From: an uncultured delta proteobacterium
Lineage (GTDB): Bacteria > Desulfobacterota > Binatia > UBA9968
Direction: 5' to 3'
Length of the DNA stretch: 64,000 nucleotides
Assembly: GCA_963727625.1 (NCBI GenBank)
Contig: CAVSHR010000004.1
Coordinates: 224,001 to 288,000 of the forward strand
Made by a program: the position numbers and the translations under genes. A model generated the notes under the pieces. The model saw nothing but the letters and a program-made list of their open reading frames with translations, was not told where the DNA came from and ran no database searches. Shown here piece by piece: positions 38,393-46,536 of this stretch; the stretch's first letter is position 1, and each line of letters starts with the position of its first letter.

Positions 38393-38411
38393 GTTTGCGG
38401 GTTTATATATA

Positions 38412-38439
38412 ACGTCTGATAAGATATAGAAAATTTGAT
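38412..38439 (+). other. Partial dif copy (XerC arm + core, degenerate XerD arm)
   Basis: ACGTCTGATAA GATATA GAAAATTTGAT. Confidence 0.75.
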
Positions 38440-38459
38440 TTTCAGAGTAGGGTAGTATC

Positions 38460-38489
38460 ACGTCCGATCGTCCTCCAATTATGTAACCC
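38460..38489 (+). other. Second dif/cer-like site with an 8-bp spacer
   Basis: ACGTCCGATCG TCCTCCAA TTATGTAACCC; arms match the dif arms at 8/11 and 9/11. Confidence 0.5.
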
Positions 38490-38492
38490 TTA

Positions 38493-39140
38493 CTAATTTT
38501 TCTTATCTCTTTTTTCTACTGCATTTTTCGCCCCAGCCGGGAGTGTTTCATATAAGTTCCCCACTCGCATTGGCATGGATATCATGTACTCGACAATGAG
38601 ATTTACTAAAGGGAAAAGCTTGTCTGCCACCCCTACGTCATCCGCATCGATCTGACCCGGATGTACGGCATTGTTTCCTATAACGCGAACACTATCCAAC
38701 GCTTTTTGCATGGTTGCAGGTAAACCTTTTGACACCAACATTCCAATATCATCATTGAGATTGGTACCCGCACCCCCGAGATGAATGCACAGTTTCTGTA
38801 TTGCTAGACGAAGCAATGCAGCTGCCCCTCTCGGTGAGATCAGCGCGATTTGTGCCGCTTCTTCGTAATCAGCTTTCACCGCCGGTGGCATGTCTGCGGG
38901 TGGCAAAGGAGCCGCGCCCCGATTCGGATACACTATCGAATGCGCGTGCCATATAGATAATTCCCCGCAGTGTTCGCACTGCCCCAAGGATACGTCGGCT
39001 TCAAAATAATTCGGATGGCCTTCTGGAACTGCAGGACAATTGCGAGAGTTCCTGTACCCCCATTTGTAAGACCGGGCATACACGCCACAATGCGGGCAGG
39101 TGAATGCTTTGGTATCACGATCCGGCGCCACGTAGCTCAT
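38493..39140 (-). CDS. DUF4145 (HEPN-like) protein with N-terminal zinc ribbon
   Basis: FTCPHCG, CEHCG, AAALLRLAIQKLC and RVIGNNAVHPG. Confidence 0.85.
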   Translation of the reverse strand: MSYVAPDRDTKAFTCPHCGVYARSYKWGYRNSRNCPAVPEGHPNYFEADVSLGQCEHCGELSIWHAHSIVYPNRGAAPLPPADMPPAVKADYEEAAQIALISPRGAAALLRLAIQKLCIHLGGAGTNLNDDIGMLVSKGLPATMQKALDSVRVIGNNAVHPGQIDADDVGVADKLFPLVNLIVEYMISMPMRVGNLYETLPAGAKNAVEKRDKKN

Positions 39141-39408
39141 GAATCAAGATCCCCATTCGTGCCGAACTTTCTCAATAATTTTTAAGTCCCTAATTTTAGT
39201 ACTCCAACTATCGGTATCCGCGCAAGGCCGTGCCCGAGGAAATATTGAGCGACGATCAAACAGCAGCGCGTGCACTTGCCTTGCAGTGCTCCGCCACATG
39301 AACCTTTTTCCGGACCCGGGAAAACCCTCGGGCACGTAAGAGGGTTTTCCATCGAGTGCTTACCACTCCGAGGCATCGCGCGCCTGGATGCTCCGGGCGC
39401 ACGGTGCC

Positions 39409-39684
39409 TCAATGAACTCTCACCGATGAATCTGAGAGATTCAGCTTTGAAACTTTTCCGCCACCCTCAATAACAGCATCAGCGATCTCATTGATTACAG
39501 ACGGACCGCCAAGAACGAGAGTAGAGTCACAGAACACGCAATGAATCTCTAAATCGTCCGAACCGAGATCAAACCGTTGAACCCTCAACTTATGGTCGGC
39601 TTCAAGATGACGCCTGATAGCCCGGCGGATCTGTTTTCCCGCTAATCTCATGCTAGCCCTCTGTAACCCTTTGATTTTATTCAC
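39409..39684 (-). CDS. Orphan small protein in the dif element
   Basis: 91-aa ORF with HCVFC, co-oriented with neighbouring island ORFs. Confidence 0.5.
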   Translation of the reverse strand: MNKIKGLQRASMRLAGKQIRRAIRRHLEADHKLRVQRFDLGSDDLEIHCVFCDSTLVLGGPSVINEIADAVIEGGGKVSKLNLSDSSVRVH

Positions 39685-39733
39685 TCGGTTCTAAAACGTT
39701 TAGCAATCAAGATTAAAGAGAGAATTCCACCGT

Positions 39734-40021
39734 TCACTCTGGCAGTCCTCCCTGTTCGCGATCTGCAGCGCCCTTAAGCTGAGAGATCAGCCGCTTTAGA
39801 CGATCAATGCTCTGGAATTCATTATCGCGCAGAACGTCTTCGAAGAATCGCGCCGCATAGATCAGCACGCCATCCTTAAACTTGATCACACTCTCCAGAC
39901 GTTTGATTTCTGCGTGCAGGCGGGCGAGCTCGCTGCAGAGCGCTCGGTGATTATCTTCAACAGTCCGGTGTTGAACTGTTGCCTTATATTCAGGTGGAAG
40001 AAGCTGGATACGACGGCTCAC
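39734..40021 (-). CDS. Orphan coiled-coil small protein in the dif element
   Basis: 95-aa ORF; its GTG start overlaps the TGA of ORF 40018-40230. Confidence 0.5.
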   Translation of the reverse strand: MSRRIQLLPPEYKATVQHRTVEDNHRALCSELARLHAEIKRLESVIKFKDGVLIYAARFFEDVLRDNEFQSIDRLKRLISQLKGAADREQGGLPE

Positions 40022-40305
40022 GGCAAATTTACCCCTTGGATAAATTCACCGTCACCATTTGCACGGCGTTCAGGTCCTAGTAGACTCTGCGGACCTGTTT
40101 TCTCCGGACGCACCGGTGGAAACTTAACACAACTAGAACGGCGAGGTATTTGCCTTAAGCCCCTCAACAGGCGCGATGTACTTTTCGAACTAGCCGGCCA
40201 TTGTGAGTCTAGCCGCCCCTTAGATAACACAGGGGGGAGACCCTTACAAGAGGCCCTAAACAGGGCGCTTTGATAAAAAGGGCGCTTACCAGTCCGCCAT
40301 AGCTA

Positions 40306-40333
40306 ACGTCTGATAAGATATATTATGTAAACT
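40306..40333 (+). other. dif: Chromosomal dif site (XerCD dimer-resolution site)
   Basis: ACGTCTGATAA-GATATA-TTATGTAAACT has the 11-6-11 dif layout (compare E. coli GGTGCGCATAA-TGTATA-TTATGTTAAAT). Gene strand bias flips here. Confidence 0.88.
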
Positions 40334-40487
40334 TTAATAGATAGCTTCAGTTTGATTCGCTTAAAGATGCCGAACTCTTTCCTGTTTCGCCTTCCCCGCC
40401 ATCTCGTTTGAATATTGACTCGCTCCATCCATGCACGACTCGAAAGCTCATTTCGCCCTCGCGCCCGACCATTAAAGCTACGCTGGA

Positions 40488-41645
40488 TTAGAAATAACGC
40501 CAGAGCCACCATTTCTCGAAACCGAGCTTAGCCCAGTAGATCAGTTTCGACGGGCCCCAGGTGCGCGGCTCGGTGGCGCCGAACGGTGGCCAGCCGGTAG
40601 GATAAATGGTTCGATTAGCAGCGGCGCGTCCAGCACCGTATGCCAGCAGTCATATGGTGTGGAGCCACAAGTCTACCGGTCTTCCTTTGCCGGTAATCTC
40701 AGCGGCCAGGTTGTGCGCAAGCACGTCGGCTTCCTGATGAGCTACGCCGCCGGATTTGGACGCCGGCATGTCGGCACAATCGCCGATCGCGTAGACGTTG
40801 TCCCATTTCGTCCGGAGCGTGTCGTAATCGACACGAATGCCGCTTTCACACTCCGCCAGCCCGCAATCGAATAGCACTTTAGCTGGGCGATGCGGCGGTA
40901 CCATGACCAGCAAATCATACGGAATCCTGTAGTCGTATAGCCCCTTGACTTCCTTGGCTTGGGGATCGATCGACCGGACGACAAATTCGTAATGCTGCGT
41001 GATGTTTCGGCGCCGGCTTTCCTCATCCATCCAGACAATCGGATTACGGTGTTCACCGGTGGGTTCCGGGTCGCGGGTGAAATATTCGATTTGCACTCGG
41101 TCGCGGATACCGCGTTTCTTGAAGTAACTGTCCAACATCCACTGCGCTTCGTATGGCGCCGGCGGACAGCGATATGGCCCGAGCGGGATCCCGACGACGA
41201 CTCGTCCGCCGTTGAATGTTTCAAGCGTACTGCGCAAGCGCATGGCACCGTCGAGCTCCCAGGGATGGATCGACGCTTCGGCAAAACCGGGAACCAGATC
41301 GGGCCTTACCTGCATGCCGAGGGAAACGATGAGATAGTCGTAATCAAGTTTCTGATCCCGCAGTTCAACTTCTTGACGTTTTGGATCGATACCCAAAACT
41401 TCGGATTGGATAAACTTGACGTTGCGCTTTTCCAATAGGCTCAAACTGCGCGTGATGTCGCGTGGTTGGCGCTCACCGACCATGACGAACAAAAATGCCG
41501 GCATGAACAGATGATCGGCCCGCTTGTCGACAAGGATGACGTCATGGTTCTCGCCGAGCTTCCGGCCAAGATTCGTCGCCGCTACCACGCCGCCGCTGCC
41601 GCCGCCCAAAATGACTATTTTTTTTCTCCCGTTGACGGCCGTCAT
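40488..41645 (-). CDS. Sulfide:quinone oxidoreductase-like FAD oxidoreductase, probable selenoprotein (UGA332 = Sec), 385 aa
   Basis: GGGSGG, CPPAPYE (C160) and YAIGD motifs. After TGA 40650-40652 the frame continues LLAYGAG...AKLGFEKWWLWRYF to TAA at 40488. Confidence 0.8.
40616..40645 (-). promoter_or_regulatory. Putative bacterial SECIS hairpin
   Basis: mRNA UGGCA-UA-CGGUGC-(UGGAC)-GCGCCG-C-UGCUA; the loop starts 17 nt after the UGA, with G at loop position 2. Confidence 0.65.
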
Positions 41646-41828
41646 CTACTTCTTGCCACCATGCCGTTGCTGCCAGCGCAGCGTCAAACCTTTGAGATTC
41701 CTCATCCGTTGCTCACGCCACAGCTCCTGTTCGCGCCGGCCTTCGCGTGTGAGTTCCTGGCCGAATCGCGATGTGGCATAAAGAAACCAGAGAATGAGTT
41801 TATCGGATAAATCTCTGAGCCGTTCCAT
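41646..41828 (-). CDS. Small hypothetical protein directly upstream of the SQR-like gene
   Basis: 60 aa; its TAG abuts the ATG of the next gene. Confidence 0.55.
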   Translation of the reverse strand: MERLRDLSDKLILWFLYATSRFGQELTREGRREQELWREQRMRNLKGLTLRWQQRHGGKK

Positions 41829-41938: not shown

Positions 41939-42906
41939 CTACCGAAGGAAGGTATCTTCCTGCCGGAGTTTCTCCCCCGCGGCCAACAACCCCTGCGGCG
42001 TCGGCCCCGCTTCGCCGATGAGTCCAACCTGGCGCAGAAACTGTCCTATCTGCTCATGGTCGCGTGGACTTACCGGCGCGTAGGGACGGCAAGGATTGCC
42101 GAGATCGACGCCGAAGTGTTTCATCGCGGACTTCATCACCGGCGGCAATCCGTACGCTGCCCATTTTCCTGGAAACAACGCGTAGCAGCGCGCCCAAAAG
42201 CGCGCGGTCTCGAGATCTCCGGCGCGAAATGCCTTGACGATTTGTGCGCCGATTCGCGTTCCCGGCGGCGGCATGGTCGCGCCGGAGCCGCCCAACATAA
42301 GCGTGACCAGCAGCGGTTGCATCGTTGTGAAATAATGCCCCCGCCCGGCGATGTCGATTTGCTCGATCAACCTGGAGATTTTAGTTATATCCCGCGAACT
42401 TTCCTTAAAGTACCGGATGTTGCCGATCTCACTGATTTTGACAAAGGCATCTTGGGGCGGGTCGGCGCCGGGTCCAGGGTTATGATAACAAGTGACCGGC
42501 AGCGGGCTTGCCGAAGCCACTTGAGTATAGAACTCCATCAATTCGGCGATGGTCGGCTGCCCCCCCAAGGGCGTAGCGGCATCAGCACTTGCACCAGATC
42601 GCCGCCCACTTTCGCGGAATAATCCGCGAGCTCGATCACCTCGCGCGGCGACGGGCTGGAGCAACCGAGAATGACCGGCACACGCTTGTTCACCATTTCC
42701 GTCGCAACTTTCAGCACCTCTTTGCGCTCGTCGCGTGTAAGCATGGTGTATTCGGCCGCTTCGACGGCGGCGATAGTGACGGCGTCGCAGTCCGCAACGA
42801 GAAATTCGATCTCTTTTTCCAGCGCCTTGTAATTCACCCGGTCATTGTCATCGAACGGGGTCAGGCAGGCGCCGATGATTCCTTTAATCGGTTTTTCCAG
42901 TGCCAT
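41939..42906 (-). pseudogene. DapA/DHDPS-family aldolase-like gene with a -1 frameshift in a G7 run
   Basis: N-half (CLTPFDDNDRVN...LRPWGG) and C-half (GGQPTIAEL...YHNP...YFKESS) lie in different frames, joined at the C7 run 42560-42566. Confidence 0.85.
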
Positions 42907-45366: not shown

Positions 45367-46536
45367 ATGGCCAAGAGCTTTCAGGAGATTATGGCCGAAG
45401 CGCGCAAGGAAATTCCCGAAGTGAGCGTGCAACAAGTCAACGAATTACTTAAGAATAACGGCAAATCGCCGGTTTTGCTTGACGTTCGCGAGAGCGATGA
45501 GTGGCGCCAGGGGCATCTGGAAGGAGCCCTGCCGTTGCCACGCGGCTTTCTTGAGATCAAAGTCGAGAGCGCGGTCCCCAACAAGGATGCTCCGATAATC
45601 GCCTATTGCGCCGGCGGCGTGCGCTCGTTGTTGGCCGCGAAGGTGATGAAGGAAATGGGTTATCGGAACGTTTCTTCGATGGCGGGCGGTTACGCAGCGT
45701 GGAAAAATGGCGGATTCAAATGGGTGCAGGATTTTCAGTATACGCCGGAGCAATTGATCCGCTACAGCCGCCATTTTCTCCTGCCCGAGGTTGGCGAAGA
45801 CGGCCAGGCGAAATTACTTCAAGCCAAGGTGCTGATGGTTGGAGCGGGCGGTTTGGGCTCCCCCTCCGCCTATTATCTGGCGGCGGCCGGGGTCGGAACG
45901 ATCGGCATCATCGACAACGACGTCGTAGATATTTCTAACCTACAGCGCCAAATCCTTCACGCCAACGACCGGGTCGGCATGCCAAAAGTCGAATCGGCCA
46001 AGAAGACTCTCGAGGCGCTCAACCCAGACGTTAAAGTGATTCCTTACCAAGCCAAATTAACCTCCGAAAATATCATGGAGATCATCAAAGATTACGACTT
46101 GGTCGTCGACGGTTGCGATAACTTTCCAACGCGCTACCTGGTAAACGATGCCTGTGTACTGACGGGAACGCCTAACGTGCACGGCAGCATCTTCCAGTTT
46201 GAGGGCCAAGCCACGGTATTTTATCCCGGCAAGGGCCCCTGCTACCGCTGTTTATATCCGGAACCGCCGCCCGCCGAGATGGCGCCCAGTTGCGCCGAAG
46301 CCGGTGTGCTCGGCGTGCTGCCGGGCTTGATCGGCGTGATCGAGGCCCTCGAAGCGGTAAAACTCATTCTCGGCAAAGGCGATAGCTTGGTCGGCCGCTT
46401 GTTACACTTCAACACTCTGACCATGGAGATCAACACGCTCAAGCTGCGGCGCGATCCCAATTGCCCAATGTGCGGCGATCATCCGACGATCCACCAGTTG
46501 ATCGATTACGAAGAATTTTGCAGCTTGCGGCACTAG
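45367..46536 (+). CDS. moeB: Rhodanese-fused MoeB/MoeZ adenylyltransferase
   Basis: LDVRE...YCAGGVRS rhodanese; RYSRH, GAGGLG, SNLQRQ, PCYRC and SCAEAGVLG. Confidence 0.93.
   Translation: MAKSFQEIMAEARKEIPEVSVQQVNELLKNNGKSPVLLDVRESDEWRQGHLEGALPLPRGFLEIKVESAVPNKDAPIIAYCAGGVRSLLAAKVMKEMGYRNVSSMAGGYAAWKNGGFKWVQDFQYTPEQLIRYSRHFLLPEVGEDGQAKLLQAKVLMVGAGGLGSPSAYYLAAAGVGTIGIIDNDVVDISNLQRQILHANDRVGMPKVESAKKTLEALNPDVKVIPYQAKLTSENIMEIIKDYDLVVDGCDNFPTRYLVNDACVLTGTPNVHGSIFQFEGQATVFYPGKGPCYRCLYPEPPPAEMAPSCAEAGVLGVLPGLIGVIEALEAVKLILGKGDSLVGRLLHFNTLTMEINTLKLRRDPNCPMCGDHPTIHQLIDYEEFCSLRH

Follow-up and report, generated by a model that had tools for sequence, protein, structure and literature searches.

The window analysed here is a stretch of 64,000 nucleotides from an uncultured delta proteobacterium of the Binatia (contig CAVSHR010000004.1, assembly GCA_963727625.1), and on its minus strand it carries a gene for a flavoprotein resembling sulfide:quinone oxidoreductases (SQRs), the reading frame of which contains an in-frame TGA. 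This TGA very probably encodes selenocysteine (Sec) in place of the second catalytic cysteine of the enzyme, as judged from the sequence of the gene and of its relatives. The elements of the gene are the following.

41645-40488, minus strand: putative seleno-SQR-like gene, complete, 385 codons plus TAA, ATG at 41645
41592..41609, minus strand: GGGSGG dinucleotide-binding motif, residues 13-18, flavin adenine dinucleotide (FAD) site according to translation, Pfam and alignment
41166..41168, minus strand: Cys160 codon TGT in PYRCPPAPYE, first catalytic cysteine, aligned with the Cys201 motif of human SQOR
40650..40652, minus strand: TGA of the predicted Sec332, second catalytic cysteine position, TGA in 158 of 158 covering loci
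40622..40638, minus strand: putative bacterial Sec insertion sequence (SECIS), a 17-nt hairpin with a 6-bp stem and a 5-nt loop NGGNC, from an RNAalifold consensus
40491..40547, minus strand: C-terminal helix KLIYWAKLGFEKWWLWRYF, residues 367-385, helical from 367 to 384 in the AF2 model, presumed membrane- or quinone-side element

Reading frame and conservation of the TGA

When the minus strand is translated with TGA read as U, codon 332 (40652-40650) lies right behind ...LWLHTI and is followed by 53 sense codons and a TAA at 40490-40488. A mechanical listing of open reading frames (ORFs) ends the gene at 331 aa, and in the public protein collection 119 of the 120 best matches, which are named oxidoreductase or sulfide:quinone oxidoreductase, have a length of at most 344 aa and a query coverage of at most 86%. 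The only full-length entry is P0019, a metagenome protein of 385 aa with 71% identity to the window protein and a Cys at column 332 (LHTIC). Searching the window's genome with this query (E<=1e-5) revealed no second copy of the gene. A sequence-only reading of the same DNA had already claimed that the ORF listing halts at LWLHTI with the frame running on for 53 codons to TAA, and that standard annotation truncates the enzyme; the minus-strand sequence and its translation, with residues identical to those given at the time, and the lengths of the public matches bear out both claims.

The TGA is shared by the relatives of the gene. In total, 158 loci cover it, i.e., 78 genome_contigs loci (2 of 80 genome loci end before the TGA) and 80 metagenome loci, and TGA stands in the same column in 78 of 78 and 80 of 80 of them, respectively, as well as in 30 of 30 loci for which DNA of related genomes was fetched. 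In a six-frame search of 61 related genomes, all 47 rows spanning residue 6 or earlier to residue 385 hold exactly one in-frame TGA, one row with a TAG in addition. Two unpublished genomes (G005 and G035) are counted in the related-genome, 30-locus and SelA tallies, and the public loci alone agree with these. The next codon after residue 385 is a stop in each of the 151 loci that extend this far (TAG 55, TAA 45, TGA 51). With TGA ending 51 of 151 orthologues, it is a normal terminator in these organisms, and a reassigned code is therefore unnecessary.

The 53 codons behind the TGA show a coding third-position pattern and are conserved above the rest of the gene: across the 158 loci, mean entropy at codon positions 1/2/3 amounts to 0.33/0.23/1.23 past the TGA and to 0.55/0.32/1.39 ahead of it. 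Since the TGA column, the coding pattern of the tail and the stops behind it are all conserved across loci, it is very unlikely that the TGA stems from a sequencing error or from a nonsense mutation private to one strain, or that it acts as a true stop.

Fold and active site

The read-through protein comprises the Pfam domains Pyr_redox_2 (PF07992) and FCSD_central (PF21706), and its AF2 model, based on a 25-sequence alignment, reached a mean predicted local distance difference test score (pLDDT) of 93.2. Best Foldseek matches were the SQRs of human, Aquifex and A. ferrooxidans and flavocytochrome c sulfide dehydrogenase (FCSD), with template modelling (TM) scores of 0.82-0.86. By sequence, the closest solved structures were human SQOR (best, E 6e-34), Acidianus SQR, FCSD flavoproteins and bacterial type I SQRs. 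Human SQOR, a type II SQR (PDB 6OI5, 8DHK), is thus the best match among solved structures in both sequence and fold; it differs from the window protein in its low identity (~25%), in having sulfur at the second site instead of the predicted Sec, in its mitochondrial location and in a longer C-terminal region.

In the alignment with human SQOR, Cys160 (PYRCPPAPYE) falls on the Cys201 motif and U332 on the Cys of TSCPL, i.e., Cys379, and both Cys160 and column 332 are nearly invariant among relatives. The two human cysteines are described as holding the catalytic trisulfide Cys201-S-S-S-Cys379, with a short channel connecting the acceptor groove to Cys379 (PMC12589024). As U332 aligns with Cys379, selenium would by homology be located at the acceptor-facing catalytic position. 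The C-terminal motif K..FEKWWLWR(Y/W)F is common to Cys-type relatives, too. The sequence-only reading had proposed precisely these elements, a Cys160 motif, a C-terminal KxxFEK(Y/W) helix and a UGA on the second redox cysteine that would form a Cys160/Sec332 pair, and the alignments are in agreement with each of them.

To survey column 332, we used 152 sequences, namely the query, P0019 and 150 representatives at 50% identity. Cys occupies the column in 111 of them, including P0019, while 8 sequences end exactly before the column, 12 are fragments ending earlier, and 21 have another residue or a gap. The His three residues before the column is not specific for Sec forms, being present in 18 of the 111 Cys forms. 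P0168 and P0172, two SQR-family representatives from separate parts of the tree, end one residue short of the catalytic Cys column; they may represent further independent Sec lineages and are not counted as such.

Hairpin and selenocysteine machinery

Directly 3' of the UGA, the RNA could fold into a hairpin with the 5' arm CGGUGC (40638-40633), the loop UGGAC (40632-40628) and the 3' arm GCGCCG (40627-40622). The stem begins 11 nt and the loop 17 nt behind the UGA, with GG within the loop, as the sequence-only reading had described it (a G-containing loop 17 nt downstream). RNAalifold, applied to 30 sequences, returned a single consensus element with the stem C-GGCGC / GCGCC-G, located at +14 to +30 from the U of UGA. 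A 5-bp lower stem, obtained when the window was folded alone, is missing from this consensus and was rejected. Among 79 sequences (74 distinct), pairing in the stem is retained in 99.8% of 444 cells with one cell unpaired, and each of the 10 one-sided stem changes leads to G.U.

Stronger evidence comes from synonymous sites. Ranked by third-base entropy among 113 conserved four-fold codons, the lowest three are R340, G337 and A341 (ranks 1-3), which are precisely the three four-fold codons whose third base falls in the stem; the loop codons A338 and G339 have ranks 97 and 50. Ranks 1-3 of 113 for the synonymous sites of the stem show that selection acts on the RNA itself. P0019 carries EPGK (LLAFEPGKAA) where the Sec forms have GAGR (LLA(F/Y)GAGRAA), so that its codons would be unable to form the stem.

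The minimal SECIS of E. coli fdhF is a 17-nt stem-loop located 11 nt past the UGA with a G in its apical loop. Size and spacing of the hairpin described here are equal to this element; its sequence differs and no bulged U is evident, and recognition by SelB is predicted from sequence. A comparison with the hairpin after the TGA in the selD gene of the same genome gave no clear shared shape.

Machinery for Sec insertion is encoded on contig C5 of the window's genome (6.6 Mb, 15 contigs), comprising SelA (527 bits), the winged-helix domain of SelB, SelD and a tRNA-Sec with the anticodon TCA (ARAGORN). The selD gene has an in-frame TGA of its own in the context KAAGUAAKLG (L003, position about 1531; G000:C5:718570), so selenophosphate synthetase would also be a selenoprotein here. 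Among the 53 relatives featuring the SQR-like gene, 50 gave a strong SelA match.

Relation to catalogued selenoprotein SQRs

A selenoprotein subtype of type III SQR has been catalogued as NCBIfam NF049943 and is included in deep-Sep of 2025 (PMC12013277), and a 2026 review citing deep-Sep tabulates the NF049943 family with the motif HxxU (PMC13188914). This model was the best NCBIfam match of the window protein, which scored 264.1 bits against a curated cut-off of 525, whereas L199 and L203, two true members used as positive controls, reached 661.8 and 666.8 bits. True members exist in the same GTDB phylum as well, with TGA in 7 genomes of one family. They share Sec at the identical column and the HxxU motif with the window protein (HATU there, HTIU here), but are only 33% identical to it and longer (~424 aa compared to 385 aa), the C-terminus here being different and shorter. 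The hairpins differ, too: NF049943 members feature an 8-bp stem CGAGAAGG/CCUUCUCG with the loop GGUC at +20 to +39, in contrast to the 6-bp stem with NGGNC at +14 to +30 described above. For a 60-aa ORF that precedes the SQR-like gene in the window (see below), no counterpart was found in 8 loci from the NF049943-like clade, of which 7 are Sec forms and one is a Cys form.

Trees were calculated with FastTree (126 representatives) and IQ-TREE (42 rows). Both Sec groups belong to one superfamily and lie within one well-supported clade (98) of mostly Cys-type enzymes. The window's clade (P0001, P0019 and P0123) is strongly supported in both trees, and another strongly supported clade holds the NF049943 Sec forms, nested there among Cys forms. 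A single clade of both Sec groups was rejected by the approximately unbiased (AU) test (delta lnL, i.e., log-likelihood difference, 122.7, p 2.5e-9). Based on the score of 264 versus 525 bits, 33% identity, the different hairpin and the lack of a single clade, the window protein represents a second lineage. Two separate Cys-to-Sec replacements together with a reversion to Cys in P0019 would be the simplest reading of these trees.

The assignment of the window protein to type III is based on the NCBIfam label of the nearest model and on the clade shared with NF049943-like proteins. The Cys-using type III SQRs are the nearest functionally studied subgroup by this label, set beside the window protein by description only. 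For those of Caldivirga maquilingensis and Methylacidiphilum fumariolicum (MFUM_v2_0219), sulfide oxidation coupled to quinone reduction is described (PMC10205796), and type III SQRs are described as binding the membrane through the C-terminal domain (PMC9666304). The M. fumariolicum gene is reported to sit with TusA- and DsrE2-like genes (PMC10205796), none of which was seen near the window gene.

Selenoprotein SQRs have thus been catalogued since 2025, and the Binatia form adds to this known kind one more lineage that evolved separately. We found no published report on selenoproteins of Binatia or Binatota, and the TGA-homologue figure and supplements of deep-Sep (PMC12013277) may list the lineage. 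The sequence-only reading had left open whether such a family was catalogued: a seleno-SQR family is, and the protein described here falls below its cut-off and belongs to the other lineage. What it had suggested to look for was largely encountered, namely Cys/TGA pairs at column 332, a hairpin conserved among homologues and the genes selA, selB, selD and selC (tRNA-Sec) in the genome, and a TGA private to one strain, which it had named as contrary evidence, is at odds with the 158 loci.

Distribution and gene neighbourhood

The gene was found in 53 of the 61 related genomes and in 36 of the 37 high-quality ones (at least 90% complete, at most 5% contaminated). Within a single uncultured bacterial order, for the most part under the label Candidatus Binatia, the gene is close to universal. 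The 80 genome loci mostly belong to 'Candidatus Binatia' metagenome-assembled genomes (MAGs), others are labelled delta-proteobacterial or Syntrophobacter, and a few are Acidobacteriota MAGs with 66-67% identity. Of 300 other genomes sampled from the phylum, none showed an orthologue; 23 had a match, all of at most 40% identity, and the 8 other genomes of the class within this sample gave no match.

Two genes lie upstream of the SQR-like gene.

41646..41828, minus strand: 60-aa ORF, candidate accessory subunit, its TAG stop abutting the SQR start codon
41939..42906, minus strand: dihydrodipicolinate synthase (DHDPS)-family gene, split by a frameshift into two overlapping ORFs, Pfam DHDPS in both halves, break at ~42560-42570

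With tblastn, the 60-aa ORF was detected in 77 of the 80 genome loci and in 75 of the 80 metagenome loci. Its third codon positions vary most (summed entropy by codon position 47.5/33.0/80.3), it contains no Cys, and in four loci (L063, L098, L111 and L116) it forms an in-frame N-terminal fusion with the SQR. None of 33 members gave an NCBIfam family and no Pfam family was found; the best atlas score of 0.77 is under any useful level, and the window copy as query retrieved no longer (fused) relatives from the protein collection, which is weak evidence. Its product is a candidate accessory subunit of the seleno-SQR-like enzyme. The ORF lies between the SQR gene and the DHDPS-family gene, which precedes the SQR gene in the same orientation in 76 of 80 loci. 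At the break in its DHDPS-family gene, the window has a run of 7 G and lacks one base compared with the relative L037; the frameshift probably either stems from an indel in the assembly or arose recently.

Downstream of the SQR gene, 29 related loci have a tetratricopeptide repeat (TPR) gene, which here is separated from it by ~2.1 kb (38393-40487). Occupied by a DUF4145 gene (38493-39140) and small unassigned ORFs, this stretch could be a local insertion. On the plus strand, a rhodanese-ThiF fusion gene of the sulfur-transfer/adenylation type (45367-46536) is situated 3.7 kb from the SQR gene.

Discussion

Our data favour, with a probability of roughly 0.85, a gene encoding a 385-residue selenoprotein of the SQR family, with hairpin-directed insertion of Sec332, an FAD fold, a Cys160/Sec332 pair, sulfide-to-quinone chemistry and an origin in a separate lineage. 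In such an enzyme, SelB with Sec-tRNA(Sec) would be recruited by the 17-nt hairpin starting 11 nt 3' of UGA332, selenocysteine would be inserted at position 332 and the last 53 residues would then be translated. By homology, the product would be an FAD enzyme of two Rossmann domains and one C-terminal helix, in which Cys160 and Sec332 could occupy the places of the human trisulfide pair, with selenium replacing the acceptor-facing cysteine. The substrate oxidized via a mixed S/Se bridge would probably be sulfide or a closely related chalcogenide or persulfide, and electrons could pass from FAD to a membrane quinone. The origin of the Sec codon would be separate from that in the NF049943 family. 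While decoding as Sec appears supported about as far as sequence alone permits, the substrate, like the effect of the selenium, is inferred.

Several observations count against this interpretation or parts of it. Folded singly, the window hairpin is not significant (z = -0.93), and a scan of positions 40400-40800 against Rfam at E<=10 returned no match to it apart from a chance snoRNA. Compensatory double changes in the stem were not observed in the 79 sequences; as the stem is nearly invariant, the lack of covariation is uninformative in either direction, and support for the hairpin consequently rests on synonymous-site conservation. The gene occurs together with no strong SelA match in G001 (65% complete), G009 (93%) and G027 (92%), all of which are MAGs. 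Identity to characterized SQRs is merely 20-26%, with the substrate assumed from family membership, and the model contains a single C-terminal helix (367-384), although most SQR types have two, one being described for type VI (PMC9666304). Sulfur-oxidation partner genes were not found near the SQR gene in the window. With regard to the separate lineage, the grouping submitted to the AU test had been picked after the first tree was known, and the sampling of the family by representatives at 50% identity is thin. Finally, the entire interpretation is drawn from sequences.

Some of these points would also fit a genuine selenoprotein of SQR fold that performs another physiological reaction, e.g., selenide, polysulfide or persulfide chemistry, or that operates in the reductase direction. 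The low identity to characterized SQRs, the score below the cut-off of NF049943 as the one curated SQR-subtype model matched, the short C-terminus with its single helix and the conserved neighbourhood, made up of a DHDPS-family gene and the 60-aa ORF instead of sulfur-oxidation genes, could all be taken in this sense, and hydrogen selenide has been reported as a substrate of human SQOR (PMC12589024; bioRxiv 10.1101/2023.04.13.535674). We nevertheless regard this option as rather unlikely, given that both catalytic positions, the FAD motifs and the K..FEKWW helix are SQR-like, that the best structural matches are all SQR or FCSD, and that type III SQRs as the nearest labelled group are described as coupling sulfide oxidation to quinone reduction (PMC10205796).

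Explanations that dispense with Sec altogether fare considerably worse. If TGA were a real stop, yielding a 331-aa product with the downstream frame as a separate element or the result of occasional read-through, the endpoints chosen by public gene callers and the use of TGA as a normal stop in these genomes would be readily explained; such a product, however, would be missing both the C-terminal helix and the second catalytic residue. The 53 in-frame codons are more conserved than the gene body, show a coding pattern and correspond by homology to the C-terminal ends of Cys relatives of full length, and the hairpin and the Sec machinery are present, which makes this option very improbable. Reassigned TGA codes occur in other bacteria, and TGA could in principle be decoded as Trp, Cys or Gly via such a code or a suppressor. 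Nothing specific speaks for this in the present case, and it seems even less probable than a real stop in view of the true TGA terminators directly after residue 385, the tRNA-Sec with its TCA anticodon, the Cys of homologues at this column and the conserved hairpin at SECIS distance. An error in sequencing or assembly, or a nonsense mutation confined to one strain and creating a pseudogene, might be suspected from the probable indel at the 7-G run of the DHDPS-family gene only 1.9 kb away, but is refuted by the same-column TGA in all of the independent genome and metagenome loci and can be regarded as practically negligible.

Returning to the favoured interpretation of a Sec-containing SQR, a more far-reaching and tentative extension, which we consider possible but would not expect to hold in all its parts, is that Sec was recruited twice independently to the acceptor-facing Cys. 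The Binatia form would then constitute a distinct, short single-helix subtype with an obligatory 60-residue partner serving membrane attachment or S/Se hand-off, which is mostly separate and in a few cases fused to the N-terminus, and selenium might be a hidden need of sulfide handling in this order.

Databases store the protein almost exclusively as a 331-aa fragment devoid of the predicted catalytic residue and membrane helix, and the NCBI selenoprotein rule for SQRs (NF049943) misses it. With the gene present in nearly all high-quality genomes of the order, metabolic models would consequently omit a complete sulfide-oxidizing enzyme along with its dependence on selenium. The very uniform hairpin offers a simple pattern for locating more selenoprotein genes in these genomes. 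Moreover, two separate Cys-to-Sec changes at one site would represent a natural experiment on the role of selenium in the trisulfide chemistry of SQRs, in which P0019, nested in the clade, would serve as a natural Sec-to-Cys revertant.

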